From the IMG/VR virus record IMGVR_UViG_3300029816_000030: DNA of 10,818 nucleotides; one strand, written 5' to 3'. A program made the translations under genes and the position numbers. Below are positions 214 through 10,293 of the stretch, piece by piece (the stretch's first letter is position 1; every line of letters begins with the position of its first letter). The stretch comes from a virus. Its lineage: Duplodnaviria; Heunggongvirae; Uroviricota; Caudoviricetes. The notes under the pieces were generated by a model. The model saw only the letters and a program-made list of their open reading frames with translations. It did no database searches and was not told the DNA's origin.

Positions 214-1971
214 TCACAGAATTAACAGGTCCTCATCAGGATCAAGCGTGGACAGAAAGTCATTCACGCCCCCGCCATTTACCAGAAAGCGGCTCATGGC
301 TGTAAAAAGCGCAACAGGGCCGTCGATTTTGGCTTCCGGCGTGGATTTATTCGGGAAGATGTTGTCGTTTTTGTCCGGTTTTACAGTAACGTTAGACATC
401 ATCCAGTTCATGACCGGATGATTGCTGTGATGGAAACGCCCGGCATAAACCAGTGATTCCGTTTCCTTCATGGCCTCTGACAGATTGCGGACCGTCTGCG
501 GAACCTCCACCAGCGGTATCCCTTCTTCAGCCAGTGCCAGACTGAACTGCATTGCGCTCCACGGGTCAAATCCCAGTTCCCTGAGGTTTTCACCGCCAAT
601 CCATTCCAGTAAGTCACTTTTTATCTGAGCATGATCGATAACATCACCATCCGTCAGGATGAGCTTATCCATCTCCGCCCACTTCCGGTAAAGTTCTGCC
701 TGCTGCCGCGAGCATCGTTCCAGCCGTCCTTCCGGAAGCCAGAATTTAAAATCAGCATGAACATGTCCGTTATCGGTTCGCCAGAGTTTTGCCGCCGCAC
801 AGATATCAATCTTATGAGCAAGGTCGACGCCGACCCACATGGGATATGTTTTCAGCTCATGTTGTGGAGCAATGTATTCGCACTTCTCCCACTTAATCAT
901 ATCCATCCAGGCAGATTCGGCAGTGACCCACACATTCATGTGTTTGGTAAAAAAATTCACCCGCGCAGAGACCTGCTCCTTCGCTTTTTTCGCCAGACGA
1001 CGCAGATCATCCCAGCGTTTACAGATGCCCAGGCCAGGATTCGCTTTCTGCCAGACCGTTTCATCAAACGGATCATCTCCCTCATCGAGCGTGTAAATGA
1101 TCGCAAAGTAAGAGTCGTCTTTTACAGCGCCCTCCACGTCGCTGTTATAGCCTCGCAATACCTTGATGGCGTAATCACGCTGCTCGTAACAAATCCCTTC
1201 CTTGTTAAAGCCAGCCGTGGTGATACCAAATAACAGGGACTGCAGACGGGCACCGGTTGCCGTTTCCAGAACGTCCCACACGTCGCGGGTTTTATGTGCA
1301 TGCAGCTCATCAATAATGGCGCAGTGGATGTTCAGACCGTCCAGGTTGTTTGCATCCGAGGAAAGCGGTTCAAATTTTGATGCGCTCTGCTCCTGGTAAA
1401 TCGCCAGCTTGTTGAAATCAAACAACCGCCCGAGTGTCGACCGGGCTTTTCTGACCATATTTTTGGCGTCTTCAAACACGATTCTGGCCTGGTCACGCGT
1501 GGTTGCGGCTGAATACACCTCAGCTCCGCCTTCACTATCTGCCCCCGTCATATACAGGCCGATACCCGATGACAGGGTTGATTTTGCGTTTTTACGGGCG
1601 ACTTCGTTGTACGCCGTCCGGAACCGGCGCACCATCACCGGACGTCCGCTGCCATCGCTGCGCATGACAACTTCCCCGGTTTCTTCATTGACCAGCGGAA
1701 TGACAAAACCAAAAATATTAATGAGGATAAATACATGCCAGTCCATCAACTCAATGGGCTGGCCTGCCAGTGCCCCTTTTACATGAGGCACAAATTTGTA
1801 GAAATTCAGGATGTGCTGCGCACGGGGTTCACTGAAATAAATCCCCCGCTTTTCGCCGTACTTCAGATCATCAAGAAAACGCTGGCAGGCCAGGCGGACA
1901 AATTCGCCAGCAACAATTTCTCCTGCAACAACACGTTCGGCGTAGCGGATCCCGTCAGCCACTTTTGCCAT
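214..1971 (-). CDS. phage terminase large subunit (HK97-like, ATPase plus nuclease)
   Basis: 585-aa ORF with ATG start and a GAGAG Shine-Dalgarno; deviant Walker A-like ARKNAKST followed by GAEVY, as in HK97-family TerL; start ATG overlaps the upstream terS stop (ATGA); sits downstream of HNH and TerS. Confidence 0.9.
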   Translation of the reverse strand: MAKVADGIRYAERVVAGEIVAGEFVRLACQRFLDDLKYGEKRGIYFSEPRAQHILNFYKFVPHVKGALAGQPIELMDWHVFILINIFGFVIPLVNEETGEVVMRSDGSGRPVMVRRFRTAYNEVARKNAKSTLSSGIGLYMTGADSEGGAEVYSAATTRDQARIVFEDAKNMVRKARSTLGRLFDFNKLAIYQEQSASKFEPLSSDANNLDGLNIHCAIIDELHAHKTRDVWDVLETATGARLQSLLFGITTAGFNKEGICYEQRDYAIKVLRGYNSDVEGAVKDDSYFAIIYTLDEGDDPFDETVWQKANPGLGICKRWDDLRRLAKKAKEQVSARVNFFTKHMNVWVTAESAWMDMIKWEKCEYIAPQHELKTYPMWVGVDLAHKIDICAAAKLWRTDNGHVHADFKFWLPEGRLERCSRQQAELYRKWAEMDKLILTDGDVIDHAQIKSDLLEWIGGENLRELGFDPWSAMQFSLALAEEGIPLVEVPQTVRNLSEAMKETESLVYAGRFHHSNHPVMNWMMSNVTVKPDKNDNIFPNKSTPEAKIDGPVALFTAMSRFLVNGGGVNDFLSTLDPDEDLLIL

Positions 1972-2453
1972 CAGTCTCTCGCTTTTAAAAGCTCTGCCAG
2001 CGGATCAACATTATCCGGTCCGGCGGTATTTACTTTTGCCCGGCTTGCCGGTGACATACCAAATTCTGCAAGCATCGCCCGGATCCGCTTCCAGGCATCC
2101 GCTTTCATCGCAGCAGCCGGGTGTGCCTTAATCAGCACATCACCGTTCTGCGTTTCCGAGCGGTAGGTGTACCCCTCAACATCGAGTGTTTCGCAGTGAT
2201 GCCGGTATTCGGTATAGGCTTCCACCAGTAGCTCAAGCGCACGCGCATCAAGCTGAGAAATGATCCCTTCCGCATTCAGCTCTTCCGCCATTCGCCTGAA
2301 CCAGTACTTCCCCTGCGCCCCTAAATGTTGCGGAATTTTAGGGAGACCTTTTTCATCCTTTTTAGCGGTTTTTTTGAGGTCTTTAACTGGCCGCTTTGAG
2401 GGGTTGCCTCGTATCAAATGCAGGCGTGGCGGGGTTTTCGGGGGTCCAGACAT
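1971..2453 (-). CDS. phage terminase small subunit (P27-family-like)
   Basis: 160-aa ORF with ATG start, basic N-terminus (PKTPPRLHLIRGNPSKRP), translationally coupled to terL through an ATGA overlap; position between HNH and TerL. Confidence 0.75.
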   Translation of the reverse strand: MSGPPKTPPRLHLIRGNPSKRPVKDLKKTAKKDEKGLPKIPQHLGAQGKYWFRRMAEELNAEGIISQLDARALELLVEAYTEYRHHCETLDVEGYTYRSETQNGDVLIKAHPAAAMKADAWKRIRAMLAEFGMSPASRAKVNTAGPDNVDPLAELLKARD

Positions 2454-2600: not shown

Positions 2601-2951
2601 TCAATTGATGCGTTCGCGCGCTGTTTTTGCTTTATGACAGGGCCAGCACAGACTCTGCAGGTTACTGTCTGCATCCGTGCCACCATGAGCTTTCGGAATG
2701 ATGTGGTCCACAGTTCTGGCTTCAACGGCTCTCCCATTGCGCAGGCAGTTCTGACACAGATGATTATCACGCTTCAGTATGCGCGCACGTATGGCATCCC
2801 ATTTCGAGCCATAGCCACGCTGGTGGCGGCTCAGTCCGCGTTGATGCTGTACCCATCCTTCGCCACGATGTTTATCGCAGTAACCAGAACTGTCTGTGGT
2901 TGTACCTGCACATCCACGCTTACGGCAGGCGCGTGGGATTCGTGATGGCAT
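2601..2951 (-). CDS. HNH homing-type endonuclease (terminase-associated, HK97 gp74-like)
   Basis: 116-aa ORF, ATG start with GGGGGTGAG Shine-Dalgarno; HNH motif CQNCLRNG...VDHIIPKAHGG...NLQSLCWPCH (CxxC, DH, N, CxxCH); located just upstream of terS/terL. Confidence 0.85.
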   Translation of the reverse strand: MPSRIPRACRKRGCAGTTTDSSGYCDKHRGEGWVQHQRGLSRHQRGYGSKWDAIRARILKRDNHLCQNCLRNGRAVEARTVDHIIPKAHGGTDADSNLQSLCWPCHKAKTARERIN

Positions 2952-2958
2952 AAATATC

Positions 2959-3159
2959 TCACCCCCTGTTCAGTTGAATGACGGGCTGATTCTCGATATG
3001 TTCTGCTGTCAGTCTGAAAGTCACAGTGACTGTTGGTGGCTCGCCTCCGCGTGACTCTGTCCTGGCGGAAAGCTGCCCTTCCAGTAACTCACCATCAACT
3101 GCAATCCCATACCCTGCGAAATGTTTACCACGATACAGTTTAGCGACCTGAAACTTCAT
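2959..3159 (-). CDS. hypothetical phage protein (66 aa)
   Basis: ATG start preceded by AGGAAG Shine-Dalgarno at good spacing; stop is 7 nt before the HNH start, so packed into the late operon; no family recognised. Confidence 0.5.
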   Translation of the reverse strand: MKFQVAKLYRGKHFAGYGIAVDGELLEGQLSARTESRGGEPPTVTVTFRLTAEHIENQPVIQLNRG

Positions 3160-3403
3160 AACTCTTCCTTTTAGACATGTTAGACGTGAACCTGTCGCAC
3201 GGCAGAGTCGCCGAAAGTTTACGGTTTACCCAAGCTCACAGCTGAAAGCCTTTCTTAGATGTGCACATGCGATATGCTTTGAATGAATTATTAAAAACTT
3301 TACTCTTTTTCAAAATTTCGTATCCTGGCTCGTTAATGTTAAAGAATTAAACGTAAGAAAGTAGTATGTTGAATCGCTTATATCAAAATACATAGGACTC
3401 AAA

Positions 3404-3889
3404 ATGCCAGAACTCGTTGATCCAACAGACTCATTAATTAGTTTTCAATACGCCTTTTCTAATGGTCTGATTAAGCCTTCACCATGCATAGTTCACCCAA
3501 ATATGAAGGTGCTTTTGGATGATGCAGAGGGTACACCACGGTTTACTTATGCATTCTTTGAAGGAGAAAATGTTAAAGGTGTTGCTATATATGTCCCTGC
3601 AGAGTTTGTTGAAGGTAAACCATGCTTTGGCGTTGGCTATGCAGTAGCCGATGAATATAAAGCGCAAGGCATCGGTACTCAACTTCTCATCGCCAGCATT
3701 GAAGAAATGCAATACGGATTTAGAAATTCCTTCAATGAATTCTATGTAGAGGCTATTGTCGGGGTTGGTAATCAAGCCTCCAACAAATTAGCTGCAAAAG
3801 TTTTATCTGATACTCCTGAGCCAGGGACAGATTCTTACTCAGGAAAACCTATCAATCAGTACATGAAACTTTTCAAAACCACAAAATAA
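3404..3889 (+). CDS. GNAT-fold N-acetyltransferase-like protein (moron, plus strand)
   Basis: 161-aa ORF, ATG start with AGGA Shine-Dalgarno 6 nt upstream; GNAT motif-A-like GVGYAVADEYKAQGIGTQLL and motif-B-like NQASNKLAAKV; AT-rich relative to flanks; opposite strand to all neighbours; followed by a hairpin terminator. Confidence 0.5.
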   Translation: MPELVDPTDSLISFQYAFSNGLIKPSPCIVHPNMKVLLDDAEGTPRFTYAFFEGENVKGVAIYVPAEFVEGKPCFGVGYAVADEYKAQGIGTQLLIASIEEMQYGFRNSFNEFYVEAIVGVGNQASNKLAAKVLSDTPEPGTDSYSGKPINQYMKLFKTTK

Positions 3890-3899
3890 CTACCATTCT

Positions 3900-3921
3900 G
3901 GCGCAGATTTTTGCGCCTTTT
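3900..3921 (+). terminator. rho-independent terminator of the GNAT moron
   Basis: GGCGCA-gatttt-TGCGCC hairpin (6-bp stem) followed by TTTT, starting 11 nt after the moron stop codon; no T-run on the other strand, so it is unidirectional. Confidence 0.5.
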
Positions 3922-4067
3922 CAGGTTTGCAGTTCACCTGCCACGCTTTGTTATGCACCTGAATGTCCCGCTTCGTCTGTTGCATTATCATAAGTAATAG
4001 CGTAGGTTGACACCTTGGCTCTCTTTCGCCACCGGCGAATCTTTAGCGGATTATCCTTGGCCGTTTT

Positions 4068-4535
4068 TTATCTGAGACATTGCTCACGAATGTATAGCTG
4101 TGCCCCTTCCAGTTGCTTCTGCATCGTCATCAACCGTTCTCTGAGGGTGAAATAATCCCGTTCAGCGGTGTCTGCCAGTCGGGGGCTGGTTGCATTATCC
4201 ACGCTGGTGGGTCCGGTGGCTTCACGCACGGCTGCGGAGCAACTGGCATTGACCCGCAGGCGCTTACGACCAGCGGCAACATCAGCGCGCAGAGTTTCAT
4301 TTTCAGCTTTCGCATTGGCTAATTCTCTCGAGTACTTTGCATCGAGCGCAGCAACATCACGCTGACGCTGTTGCATGTCAGCGATGGTGGCAGTCGCCTG
4401 CTTCAGCTCACTGACTTTTTTATCACGCTGTTCTTTGTAGGCGATGGCGTTATCACGGTAATGATTGACCGCCCACGACAGGCAGACGATGGTGCAGATA
4501 ACCAGAGTATAAATAATCGCTGCGACTCTGCTCAC
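4068..4535 (-). CDS. Rz: spanin inner-membrane subunit Rz (i-spanin)
   Basis: Strong similarity to lambda Rz ([31 protein letters not shown]..., C-terminal [13 protein letters not shown]). Probable GTG start at 4535-4533 overlapping the endolysin TGA stop (GTGA); the ORF-track start at 4550 is TTG and adds MGDRS. Confidence 0.85.
4130..4315 (-). CDS. Rz1: spanin outer-membrane lipoprotein Rz1 (o-spanin), embedded in Rz in the +1 frame
   Basis: 61-aa ORF, ATG start, lipobox LVVSAC and proline-rich [30 protein letters not shown], near-identical in pattern to lambda Rz1; fully nested within Rz. Confidence 0.8.
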
Positions 4536-5065
4536 TGATCTATCCCCCAACAGGCTAATGCGCTTTCCTGGTCACGACGAATAACCTGTCCATAGCAGTT
4601 ATTTGAACGTATGCGGCAATCGCGCCCACCATCTTTTATCCACCAGCGAATCGCCTCGCATGCGCCCTTACGATCACCGGCATTCAACCGCTTATAAAAC
4701 GTCGACGGGAAACACTTACCGGGGCCAATGTTATAGGGACAGAATGACGCTATACCCGCTTTCTGTGGTTCGGTCAGTGGTACTTTAATATTGCGCTCCA
4801 CCCATGCCAGCGCCTTATCACGTTCAATAGCGTTAACCTGGTCGCATTTTTCCTTCGACAGCTTCATTCCCGGTATGACGGGCTTACCATCCACCATTGT
4901 GGCACCACGACAGATGGTCCATATACCGGAACCATCGCGGTATGCCGTAGTGTGGTTACCCTCTTTTTCATCCAGAAACTGGTCAAGTATTTGAGGAGCA
5001 GACGCGCCTGCAGCAATCAGCGCCAGAACAGCAGCTGACAGGCCGTATTTGATTTTTGCGCTCAT
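4532..5065 (-). CDS. R: phage endolysin (T4-type lysozyme) with N-terminal SAR or signal sequence
   Basis: 177 aa, ATG start; catalytic triad spacing E-x8-D-x5-T in [16 protein letters not shown]; N-terminus [22 protein letters not shown] is Gly/Ala-rich with a possible AxA cleavage site. Confidence 0.9.
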
Positions 5066-5439: not shown

Positions 5440-5655
5440 TTACTCTCCCCGTGCAGCCTTACGCTTGTCTTCTCTGATTTTGAAGTACAGATTTGTCAGA
5501 TAAGTCAGGAAGCCCAGAACCAGACTCCCCAGTACACCAATCGCAGCCCACTGTGACGGACTGACCTGATCAAGCCACTGTAAAAACCAGTAGCCAGCAC
5601 TGCCTGCGGAGGTGCCGTAGGCAATGCCCGTTGAAATTTTGTCCATGGATTTCAT
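5440..5655 (-). CDS. S: class II holin/pinholin of phage 21 S type with dual-start motif
   Basis: 71 aa, [63 protein letters not shown]...; Met1-Lys2-Ser3-Met4 dual start as in the S21 antiholin/holin pair; strong GGAGGTGA Shine-Dalgarno. Confidence 0.9.
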
Positions 5656-5948: not shown

Positions 5949-6023
<75 letters not shown>

Positions 6024-6139
6024 ATCCTGGAACTCGGCTACCTGATTTTCATTCTGCACTGAATATCGAGAGAAGCTCTCTTTATTCGAGCCGGTAAGCG
6101 AACTTATCGTCTCGGGCTACGCCATCGCGTGGCCGAAAT

Positions 6140-6224
<85 letters not shown>

Positions 6225-6232
6225 GGACTTGA

Positions 6233-6308
<76 letters not shown>

Positions 6309-6310
6309 AC

Positions 6311-6387
6311 TGGACCGCCACCGGGGACTCGAACCTCGCACACTCAACTTAAAGGGTTGACGCTCTTTCCTGATGAGCTAGTGGCGG
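6311..6387 (-). tRNA. atypical tRNA or tRNA-like gene (anticodon loop CCUUUAA, predicted anticodon UUU/Lys, with C33 and C1-G72)
   Basis: 77 nt, CCGCCACTAGCTCATCAGGAAAGAGCGTCAACCCTTTAAGTTGAGTGTGCGAGGTTCGAGTCCCCGGTGGCGGTCCA; perfect 7-bp acceptor stem, D stem GCTC/GAGC, anticodon stem TCAAC/GTTGA, T loop TTCGAGT, one A-C mismatch in the T stem, encoded CCA. Position 33 is C rather than the near-invariant U. Confidence 0.5.
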
Positions 6388-6388
6388 C

Positions 6389-6464
6389 TGGTGGCCCTTG
6401 CTGGATTTGAACCAGCGACCTGGCGATTATGAGTCGCTCGCTCTCACCACTGAGCTAAAGGGCC
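6389..6464 (-). tRNA. tRNA with CAU anticodon, ileX/ileZ-like (probable tRNA-Ile2 reading AUA after lysidine modification; elongator Met not excluded)
   Basis: 76 nt, GGCCCTTTAGCTCAGTGGTGAGAGCGAGCGACTCATAATCGCCAGGTCGCTGGTTCAAATCCAGCAAGGGCCACCA; anticodon arm core GCGACUCAUAAUCGC and acceptor C4-G69/C5-G68 match E. coli ileX as I recall it. Confidence 0.85.
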
Positions 6465-6646: not shown

Positions 6647-6675
6647 AATATATGCCTTTCAATCTACTTTTGCAA
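6647..6675 (-). promoter_or_regulatory. late promoter pR'-like, with a downstream -10-like pause element (putative Q-loading region)
   Basis: Minus strand: -35 TTGCAA (6675-6670, inside the 3' end of the Q-like gene), 17-bp spacer, -10 TATATT (6652-6647); then TGATATTTT (6635-6627), an extended -10-like element in the initial transcribed region; terminator about 50-70 nt downstream. Confidence 0.45.
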
Positions 6676-7348
6676 CACTTTGCTTTGAAAATGCCGCCTT
6701 TTGTTTTGAACGTGTTCTCATTACAAACAATAAAGCCTCACTATCCAGTCGGTGAAAAATGTGTTTCATTGCAACCCAGTGACGAGTAAATGTTTTGGAC
6801 CAGTTTTTAGTTGTCACTCCCGCCAGTAATGCCAGCTCCTGGTATTCATAACCTTCCCCACCAAAAAGTTCTGCTTTTACTGCCTGCGCCGCCAGCCAGA
6901 TTAATTTTTTCAGGCGTTCCTGCGTTTTCCCTGCAATTTTTTTGGTACCGGATTGAGTATTAAATTCATTCCACGCCCACTGTGTTATCGCGATCTGATA
7001 TTCCCAACAAATACTCCCGCTGTAACACCACAACAACCAGGCTTTATGATGTTCTTCAAGAGACAGAACAGCCCGCCGCCACGATGATGTCGAAAACTCA
7101 ACCGGACTGACGAGAGGAATTGACGTCCCCTTCGCCAGCGATTGCTTTCCCGGGATTGGTGGATTATCCCGCGTTATCATTTTTCCAGTCACTTCATCGC
7201 GGTACCGGATTTTTTTACGCCTGTAACGCCCTGTATCAAACATGGCATTCTCCTGCCAGGCCTCAAGCTGCCCTTTTGTTGATCCACTCAAATCGGCGGT
7301 GGCAATCATGAGTTGCTCACGAACAAACTGTAAATACTGGTTATTCAT
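6659..7348 (-). CDS. putative late-gene antiterminator Q (QuuQ-like)
   Basis: 229-aa ORF, ATG overlapping the rusA stop (ATGA); immediately upstream of a pR'-like promoter, short terminated transcript and the lysis genes. Assignment is mainly positional; the sequence was not confirmed by search. Confidence 0.5.
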   Translation of the reverse strand: MNNQYLQFVREQLMIATADLSGSTKGQLEAWQENAMFDTGRYRRKKIRYRDEVTGKMITRDNPPIPGKQSLAKGTSIPLVSPVEFSTSSWRRAVLSLEEHHKAWLLWCYSGSICWEYQIAITQWAWNEFNTQSGTKKIAGKTQERLKKLIWLAAQAVKAELFGGEGYEYQELALLAGVTTKNWSKTFTRHWVAMKHIFHRLDSEALLFVMRTRSKQKAAFSKQSVAKVD

Positions 7349-9213: not shown

Positions 9214-9369
9214 TTACTCCTCAGGTTCGTAAGCTGTGAAGACAGCGACCTCCGTCTGGCCGGTTCGGATTCGTACCTCGCAGAGGTCTTTCCTCGTTAC
9301 CAGTGCCGTCACTATGACGGTTAAACAGATGACGATCAGGGCGATTAACATCGCCTTTTGCTGCTTCAT
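9214..9369 (-). CDS. hokD: Hok/Gef-family type I toxin (HokD/RelF-like, 51 aa)
   Basis: MKQQKAMLIALIVICLTVIVTALVTRKDLCEVRIRTGQTEVAVFTAYEPEE matches HokD/RelF as I recall it; ATG at 9369 preceded by AAGGAG Shine-Dalgarno; the ORF track's 70-aa version (to 9426) is an in-frame upstream extension. Confidence 0.8.
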   Translation of the reverse strand: MKQQKAMLIALIVICLTVIVTALVTRKDLCEVRIRTGQTEVAVFTAYEPEE

Positions 9370-9545
9370 AGCCTGCTTCTCCTTGCCTTTCGGCACGTAA
9401 GAGGCTAACCTACATGTGTTCAGCATGGATTGAGCCTCAGATTAATGTTAAGCGTCTTGCAGGACGCGTAATGTTAACTGGGGCTTTTCTCTATCTGCCT
9501 TTTGGTGTTCATGCCTGAGGCAGATAGCCTCAAGCACCCGCAGCA

Positions 9546-9606: not shown

Positions 9607-10293
9607 TCACTCCTTCTCTTCTTTTCCGTAGTGGAGTTGGCCAATTTTGATAAGAGGGCGCCCCTGAGATTTGCGGTGTAGATTGGTATCGCGCAGAGAA
9701 TACACACAGCCACAATATTCCTGCTGATAGAATTTTTCGCGCTTGCTGATTTCAATCATACGGGACGAGCCGCCCTGCTTGCGCCAGTTATAATCCCAGT
9801 ACACCATACCCGGATAATGCGCAACAGCTCGCCGCCCACACTCGTTAACCTGCTGCATATTTTTCCAGCGTGAAATGCCCAGTGAACTGCTGATCACACT
9901 GAAACCATTTTCAGCAGCGTACAACGCTGTCCGCTCAAAACGCATGTCAAAACACATGGTACAACGGATCCCCCTCTCAGGCTCCCATTCCATTCCTTTG
10001 GCACGTTCAAACCAGTTGTCGGTGTCGTAATCAGCATCGATAAACGGCACGCCGTGTTGTTCAGCAAAGCGAATATTTTCATCCTTACGAATTAAATACT
10101 CTTTCTGAGGATGAATGTTCGGGTTGTAGAAAAAGATGGTGTAGTCGATTCCCGAGGCCTGAAGCGCCTCCATCACTTCACCGGAACATGGAGCACAGCA
10201 AGAGTGCAGTAGTAGTTTGTTTGCCCCGTTTGGGAGCTCCAATTTAGGCCGTTTGAAATCAGCAATAGTCATAAATATTTTTATTGGGGTCAT
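9607..10293 (-). CDS. QueH-like (DUF208) putative epoxyqueuosine reductase
   Basis: 228-aa ORF, ATG start (alternative ATG at codon 8); N-terminal [11 protein letters not shown] and C-terminal EYCGCVYS cysteine motifs as I recall for DUF208/QueH; no clear Shine-Dalgarno; flanked by 153-bp and 180-bp non-coding gaps. Confidence 0.5.

Follow-up and report, generated by a model that had tools for sequence, protein, structure and literature searches.

A solitary GNAT-family gene at the bor site of a lambdoid prophage and its possible role in phage–host conflict

Introduction

The subject of this study is a solitary 161-aa GNAT-family N-acetyltransferase (GNAT) gene in IMGVR_UViG_3300029816_000030, a 10,818-nt stretch of caudoviral DNA whose full length we call the window. 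Among the described systems close to it, AcrVA5 is the established GNAT precedent, a GNAT-fold anti-CRISPR that acetylates Cas12a, and both AcrVA5 and AcrVA5Bsp resemble the window gene in being small, solitary GNATs on mobile elements with no conserved partner (PMC10799925). No sequence relationship of the window protein to AcrVA5 was detected, although no AcrVA5 sequence was compared directly, and AcrVA5 was not among the top PDB structure matches listed for the window protein. It is also, at ∼92 aa, far shorter than the window protein, and we know of no Cas12a in Escherichia coli. Brc113 is a solitary GNAT integron cassette that gave phage resistance when expressed (bioRxiv 10.1101/2024.07.02.601719). 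It shares with the window gene a single-gene GNAT makeup and a location on a mobile element; it differs in being an integron cassette and in having the canonical GNAT motif B, which is missing in the family described here, and BLASTP of the window protein against the Brc113 fragment from that paper's supplement gave no alignment.

Two groups of cellular enzymes and one phage gene complete the comparison. The TacT, AtaT, KacT, and ItaT toxins are similar in size to the window protein and have the same fold, but they come with a cognate antitoxin and are not the closest structural neighbors of the window protein, which is acidic. Rim/NAT-type protein N-alpha-acetyltransferases share with it the fold, motif A, and a glutamate on strand beta5, and differ in the N-terminal arm and at the alpha4 tyrosine position, which is alanine in the window protein; the latter also has no equivalog match. 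At the level of the locus, the counterpart is lambda bor, which lies on the opposite strand directly after Rz/Rz1. The Rz-to-terminase slot is a classic site for lysogenic-conversion morons, and expression of bor in lysogens is established. Both bor and the GNAT cassette are small, self-contained, antisense, and placed in the slot after Rz, but the two genes are not homologous, and Bor is an outer-membrane lipoprotein whereas the GNAT is a cytoplasmic enzyme.

That the product is a "GNAT family N-acetyltransferase" encoded in a prophage is already known from RefSeq. A literature search found no paper mentioning WP_001114684, and the literature on GNAT-based defense systems and leading-region acetyltransferases yielded nothing on this family, with Brc113 the sole GNAT defense cassette found. 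To our knowledge, acetylation chemistry in phage conflict so far comprises AcrVA5 and one unrelated integron cassette. If the window enzyme acts in defense or counter-defense, protein acetylation by stand-alone GNATs would join the chemistries of phage–bacterium conflict. If it is an ordinary detoxifying enzyme, it still documents the exchange of cargo at a defined prophage hot spot.

Results

The GNAT gene lies in a discrete cassette at the site of bor

The window corresponds to the late and lysis region of a lambdoid prophage whose packaging module is HK97-like, and this region reads on the minus strand. Every gene flanking the GNAT open reading frame (ORF) is on that strand, and the GNAT ORF is antisense to the late operon. 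The cassette and its parts are as follows.

∼3160-3927, plus strand: the whole moron cassette, comprising the 5′ block, AT-rich upstream region, GNAT ORF, and hairpin (from megablast limits and GC content)
3170-3285, plus strand: conserved noncoding block of ∼115 nt (from alignment with relatives)
3339-3367, plus strand: candidate sigma-70 promoter, weak and inferred, TTAAAG (3339-3344), 17 bp, TAGTAT (3362-3367), matching 7/12 consensus positions
3394-3397, plus strand: Shine-Dalgarno AGGA, 6 nt before the ATG (from the sequence, with AGGA or GAGGA at the same place in relatives)
3404-3889, plus strand: GNAT gene, ATG start, 161 aa, RefSeq WP_001114684.1 (from the ORF list)
3901-3922, plus strand: terminator-like hairpin GGCGCA/TGCGCC (3901-3918) followed by TTTT (3919-3922) (from folding, and kept in relatives)

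By megablast, cassette-free E. coli prophages aligned to the window up to ∼3144 and again from 3928, which puts the left limit at ∼3145-3160 and the right limit at 3928 and implies an inserted unit of ∼3160-3927. GC content is 0.36-0.41 over 3151-3900 versus 0.50-0.55 in the flanks, and the gene itself stands at 0.40 versus ∼0.50 for its surroundings. The cassette thus has the marks of a moron, namely a composition that differs from its flanks, absence from homologous phages, and discrete boundaries. A sequence-only reading of this DNA had described an AT-rich, 161-aa plus-strand gene that runs against the late operon between Rz/Rz1 and the packaging genes, and each of these points was confirmed, the left side being formed by a 66-aa ORF, an HNH gene, and the terminase genes. 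Its remark that no antitoxin-like ORF is visible upstream also held, as 3160-3403 contains no plus-strand ORF of ≥40 aa; none lies directly downstream of the GNAT gene either.

The comparison with the slot of lambda bor, made in the same reading, proved literally correct. In phages vB_EcoS-813R8 and 640R1, whose TerL-TerS-HNH module is 97-98% identical to that of the window, bor occupies this exact position between HNH and Rz and has the orientation that the GNAT gene has here. In another E. coli prophage, the slot is filled by a YfbU-family gene and a small ORF. The presence of bor or YfbU in sister phages indicates that the slot is a hot spot for cargo exchange. At ≥99% identity, the cassette was found in 63 of 5426 complete E. 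coli genomes (1.2%), on the chromosome every time. In E. coli C8, a nearly identical prophage has WP_001114684.1 labeled as "GNAT family N-acetyltransferase."

The product has a GNAT fold and belongs to a distinct clade

The GNAT fold of the product is certain. Pfam model PF00583 scored 27.4 bits over residues 37-132, above its gathering cut-off of 20.7 (E 4.4e-6), and an AlphaFold2 model built with 37 homologs (mean predicted local distance difference test score 91.9, predicted template-modeling score 0.87) showed a mixed alpha/beta GNAT fold. The pyrophosphate-binding loop of motif A, the Q/R-x-x-G-x-G/A stretch that follows strand beta4, is intact, reading K86-A-Q-G89-I-G91 here and R-K-Q-G-V-A in relatives. 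The acetyl-CoA-binding-like motifs first noticed in the sequence are therefore backed by the domain model, the predicted structure, and the loop itself, and the fold on which that proposal depended is present. In the model, the N-terminal arm is atypical, with one helix (residues 7-19) and then four strands, versus the usual beta1-alpha1-alpha2.

An alignment of 55 sequences from Gamma- and Alphaproteobacteria, Acidobacteriota, and others revealed ten invariant positions: P7, D39, R46, Y79, A80, G89, E116, A117, N123, and S126. The best PDB profile match was the Sulfolobus N-terminal acetyltransferase Ard1 (E 6e-4), over beta4-alpha3-beta5 only. Within this region, E116 on strand beta5 aligns with E127 of the Sulfolobus enzyme, which we take to be its catalytic residue. 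Judged from its sequence, the window protein is likely an active acetyltransferase. In a family that is compact (one 161-aa gene) and broad (∼600 clusters), G89 and E116 are the obvious candidate positions for catalytically dead variants.

We could not place the protein in a subfamily, in agreement with the sequence-only reading. Searches of PDB with phmmer and profiles, NCBIfam, PHROGs, and PADLOC all gave nothing specific: NCBIfam, which includes antimicrobial resistance (AMR) acetyltransferase families and RimI/J/L equivalogs, returned only a meaningless 11.6-bit partial match, and PHROGs only a weak generic "acetyltransferase" match. Foldseek gave template-modeling (TM) scores of ∼0.5 both to solved structures and to viral models, with 10-19% identity to solved GNATs, and the structural similarity to antibiotic-modifying acetyltransferases was no better than that to any other GNAT. 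Membership in RimI, RimJ, RimL, or NAT was rejected because there was neither full-length homology nor an NCBIfam equivalog, so that the likeness is one of resemblance only. Known antibiotic-modifying families (AAC(6′), AAC(3), Eis, PAT/BAR, streptothricin) were rejected as well, there being no match to a curated model. The clade is distinct and without a characterized member. The window protein is acidic (isoelectric point (pI) 4.8, net charge −6). Family members span pI 4.5-9.7, and charge was discarded as a clue to nucleic acid binding since pI is not conserved.

The family is solitary, under selection, and carried by prophages and plasmids

A word-indexed search recovered 39 clusters from Enterobacteriaceae, Yersinia, and Pseudomonas/Stutzerimonas, 158-168 aa in length except for four outliers (95, 114, 182 aa). 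An exhaustive profile search returned 593 clusters at 50% identity with E ≤1e-3, 197 of them with E ≤1e-30, and nearly all members are solitary proteins of 155-170 aa. The GNAT ORF was shown to be a real gene under purifying selection, with pairwise ratios of nonsynonymous to synonymous substitution of 0.05-0.17 among enterobacterial copies. No neighboring family was conserved across 25 diverse loci, and the gene was solitary in ∼60 loci.

In prophages of Enterobacter, Leclercia, Dryocola, and E. coli, the gene lies between the lysis cassette and HNH/terminase. The lysis modules vary, being of Rz type or composed of Glyco_hydro_19 with two holins, and the next late gene varies too. In Yersinia prophages, the gene is instead found between TerS and TerL. 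Across ∼38 prophage loci on at least three backbones, it is antisense and has a GC content of 0.40-0.45 versus 0.48-0.55. When we searched 50,697 deposited phage genomes with tblastn, virulent ones included, no copy was found. Plasmid copies are present in 34 records, 17 of them conjugative, mostly from Pseudomonas.

Distant members occur beside defense genes and in defense-type fusions

We scanned the neighbors of distant family members, in chromosomal or metagenome-assembled genome (MAG) loci at 34-42% identity, against PADLOC. Among the immediate neighbors, strong matches were obtained for PycC (1.6e-94) with PycTIR (5e-108), PDC-S19 (5e-137), PDC-S21 (2e-119), ApeA/PDC-S58 (5e-34), a PD-T4-6-like kinase (3e-36), PDC-M68B, and a QueC-like protein, and a scan of 117 neighbors added Drt3a/Drt3b of DRT3 (1e-120/1e-195) and PD-Lambda-3_B (1e-75). 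On Pseudomonas aeruginosa plasmid p382, Pycsar is 3 kb from the GNAT gene.

Family members were also found as domains of larger proteins. P0097 (1098 aa) combines Mrr_cat and nSTAND1 with a C-terminal domain of the GNAT family (profile E 2.6e-43). This is a defense-type architecture in which the GNAT takes the usual sensor position. P0138 joins a GNAT family domain to a SEC-C motif. Association with mobile elements and defense loci across phyla, together with the STAND fusion, is a hallmark of conflict-system components and amounts to circumstantial evidence for such a role.

Several individual loci deserve description. A complete Pycsar system, PycC with PycTIR, lies within 1-4 kb of the GNAT gene on two unrelated replicons, a Hyphomicrobiaceae MAG (L023, 2173-3828) and plasmid p382 (L068, 680-3231); this repeated proximity of Pycsar may be a coincidence or a recurrent association. 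The contig that encodes P0097 (L067, 295-4740) has a SIR2_2 gene followed by the P0097 gene, and P0097 also contains helical repeats. On an Agrobacterium conjugative plasmid (L069, 4908-6480), a family member and a second GNAT gene, of 320 aa, form a divergent pair, in the vicinity of a TIR-domain gene, a DUF6088 gene, and an AAA-ATPase/S8-peptidase pair. Another locus (L015, 1-12486) holds a 41%-identical homolog with an AcrVA2-like gene and a RecA-dependent nuclease on one side. On its other side are a CYTH gene and a complete-looking NAD salvage/synthesis set consisting of NAD synthase, NAPRTase, isochorismatase, NMNAT-like, and NUDIX genes.

Expression signals and a conserved 5′ block accompany the gene

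Of the expression signals that the sequence-only reading had put forward, the gene's own Shine-Dalgarno at 3394-3397 stood, and the promoter and terminator did so in part. The proposed TTAAAG/17 bp/TAGTAT promoter is where it was placed but was not established as a promoter, with its 7/12 match and no scan call. A promoter scan made zero plus-strand calls in 3000-4200, and its total of 2 calls is what shuffled sequence would give (2.2 expected). A looser scan gave at least three equally weak candidates, none reaching 9/12, with −10 hexamers that end at −33/−36, −64, and −87 relative to the ATG and positions that recur in relatives; identification of the promoter by consensus was therefore abandoned. 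What supports the proposed pair of hexamers is an alignment of upstream regions from 13 diverged relatives, which retain TCAAAG and GTAT blocks at conserved positions and spacing. As read from the sequence, TTAAAG-17-TAGTAT is a plausible candidate promoter.

The hairpin said to be a unidirectional terminator is real, and its run of four T is on the plus strand only. Folding gave −18.2 kcal/mol for an 81-nt stretch (z −1.8), and the terminator tool made no call because its rule requires ≥5 T. Since no T-run follows the stem on the minus strand, the hairpin would act one way and let late transcription pass. All 16 relatives examined have a GC-rich hairpin at most ∼40 nt past the stop codon, at ∼10 nt in the 11 close ones, and it is kept even in clades with a different stem sequence.

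Upstream, the block at 3170-3285 accompanies the gene in E. coli, Dryocola, Enterobacter, and Leclercia prophages despite differing adjacent genes and is missing from prophages without the GNAT gene. Within the block are an imperfect inverted repeat, GTGAGCCTG...CAGGCTCAC, and a hairpin of the form GCGC...GCGC; the left end of the block overlaps the Shine-Dalgarno region of the minus-strand 66-aa ORF. A riboswitch or structured leader was considered and rejected, as there was no Rfam match and folding gave z ∼0 on both strands; the RNAalifold covariation term was positive, and the changes were not compensatory. A small upstream peptide was likewise rejected, the 22-codon ORF at 3177 not being kept in relatives.

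Discussion

We propose that the window gene encodes an acetyl-CoA-dependent N-acetyltransferase that, from its conserved residues, would be catalytically competent. The gene would be transcribed in the lysogen from its own weak AT-rich promoter, by analogy with bor, and the enzyme may transfer acetyl groups to an amine of some macromolecule. This target is more likely a protein, because the nearest remote similarities lean to protein N-alpha-acetyltransferases. The genomic associations suggest a role for the family in conflict between hosts and mobile elements. In the version that we prefer, the prophage copy would shield the lysogen from superinfecting phages as a single-gene defense or exclusion function.

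Our support for this defensive role is tentative. It is slightly favored over counter-defense because of the bor-type antisense placement, the absence from phage isolates, the defense-gene neighbors, and the STAND fusion. The sequence-only reading had listed defense and counter-defense factors together as an option; the genomic contexts give circumstantial support to the pair. We hold just as provisionally the combined proposition that the cassette forms an autonomous moron, alternates with bor as an allele of the slot, and encodes an enzyme that serves in defense. A more far-reaching version appears doubtful to us, namely that the clade is a single-gene, acetylation-based immune module spread by prophages, plasmids, and defense islands across several phyla and recruited at least once into an Mrr-STAND-SIR2 system. 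In such a module, an incoming phage would be countered via acetylation of a phage or host protein.

A number of observations weigh against the defense reading or parts of it. With respect to the enzyme, the position of what we take to be the alpha4 general-acid tyrosine of the canonical GNAT motif is Ala130 here, and the plateau of structure matches is flat and includes phosphinothricin acetyltransferases, SpeG, AAC(6′), and MccE. For the GNAT protein itself, PADLOC-DB v2.0.0 contained 0 matching families at E ≤1. The neighbors in the PADLOC scan were selected by us with no matched background, and several of the matches are to PADLOC candidate (PDC) families, which are not validated systems. 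The Mrr-nSTAND1-GNAT fusion comes from a single metagenomic contig, and the promoter match of 7/12 is no better than chance. Lastly, plasmid copies are often embedded in long arrays of small hypothetical ORFs that all point one way and follow a recombinase gene, and the locus with the AcrVA2-like gene resembles a counter-defense island; these arrays and the AcrVA2-like and NAD-salvage contexts fit counter-defense better.

Counter-defense is the alternative that survives best, although we consider it unlikely. It holds that the GNAT acetylates and inactivates a host immune protein and, having its own promoter, is active on DNA entry. The plasmid arrays, in which small co-directional ORFs follow a recombinase, look like establishment or leading regions, and the family is found on prophages and on 34 plasmids, half of the latter conjugative. 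One homolog stands beside an AcrVA2-like gene, a RecA-dependent nuclease, and an NAD-salvage set, and the cassette would be ∼1 kb from the expected cos end if the HK97-like gene order applies. GNATs of the AcrVA5 type supply a precedent (PMC10799925). However, not one copy was present in the 50,697 sequenced phages, virulent ones included, and many members are chromosomal, beside defense genes, in phyla without visible phage context. The fusion to a STAND NTPase is a host-side architecture, antisense placement of the bor type is typical of lysogen-expressed genes, and there is no adjacent aca-like regulator.

Somewhat less probable still is small-molecule detoxification, in which the enzyme would acetylate an antibiotic, an antimetabolite of the phosphinothricin/methionine-sulfoximine type, a processed peptide-nucleotide, or a polyamine and give the lysogen a benefit unrelated to phages. 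Resistance genes are common among the solitary GNATs of mobile elements, this one has no conserved protein partner, and detoxification is possible because the structural plateau includes small-molecule acetyltransferases. In contrast, NCBIfam gave no match, AMR acetyltransferase families included, so that the earlier suggestion of an antibiotic-modifying enzyme was not borne out for the known families, and the TM score was only ∼0.5 to every solved enzyme. The family also shows no link to integrons or resistance islands, its recurrent neighbors being defense genes, and the STAND fusion would be hard to explain.

We regard it as very improbable that the cassette is hitch-hiking or decaying cargo with no role in the prophage. 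Its presence in just 1.2% of complete E. coli genomes and a promoter that is not demonstrable would agree with this, but the ORF is intact and strongly constrained by purifying selection, the Shine-Dalgarno, hairpin, and upstream blocks are conserved, and several phage backbones retain the same cassette. The option of a TacT/AtaT/KacT-like toxin, which would acetylate aminoacyl-tRNA and thereby stabilize the prophage or abort infection, was rejected and is the least credible of all: the 161-aa size and the fold are compatible with it, but there is no antitoxin ORF upstream or downstream, no neighbor family is common to the 25 loci and the gene is solitary in ∼60, the window protein is acidic (pI 4.8, with 4.5-9.7 in the family), a single gene is stably carried in 63 genomes, and the lack of a dedicated partner gene excludes a GNAT/RHH toxin-antitoxin pair.

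Flanking genes and other features of the prophage

The genes around the cassette, all on the minus strand, are listed here from the packaging side to the antiterminator.

214-1971, minus strand: TerL (annotation of the nearly identical prophage in E. coli C8)
1971-2453, minus strand: P27-family TerS (PF05119, 4.9e-25; annotation of the E. coli C8 prophage)
2601-2951, minus strand: HNH endonuclease of the HK97-like packaging module (PF01844, 1.9e-16)
2959-3159, minus strand: 66-aa late-strand ORF, immediately left of the cassette (phrog_10235, 2.6e-28)
4068-4550, minus strand: Rz spanin, on the late transcript the final lysis gene before the slot (PF03245, 1.9e-49)
4130-4315, minus strand: Rz1, embedded in Rz (PF06085, 1.4e-18)
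4532-5065, minus strand: endolysin (window gene assignment)
Between holin and endolysin, minus strand: DUF1327 gene (window gene assignment)
5440-5655, minus strand: holin (window gene assignment)
6659-7348, minus strand: Q antiterminator (window gene assignment)

The 66-aa ORF at 2959-3159 is also present in genomes without the GNAT gene, and unrelated genes of 265 aa and 210 aa replace it in Enterobacter and Leclercia prophages.

Five tRNA genes lie on the minus strand at 5949-6464, between Q and the holin gene: Gly-TCC, Tyr-GTA, Thr-TGT, Lys-TTT, and one with a CAT anticodon that is annotated as Ile in a sister prophage. A gene for a QueH epoxyqueuosine reductase is also present in this prophage (9607-10293, minus strand; PF02677, 1e-65). 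Because tRNA-Tyr(GTA) is a queuosine-modified tRNA, a phage that carries both this tRNA and QueH may tune the Q-modification of its own tRNA. On the early-region side, we observed a Hok/Gef-family type I toxin ORF (9214-9426, minus strand; PF01848, 3e-23), at the position where hokD is annotated in the identical prophage of E. coli C8.

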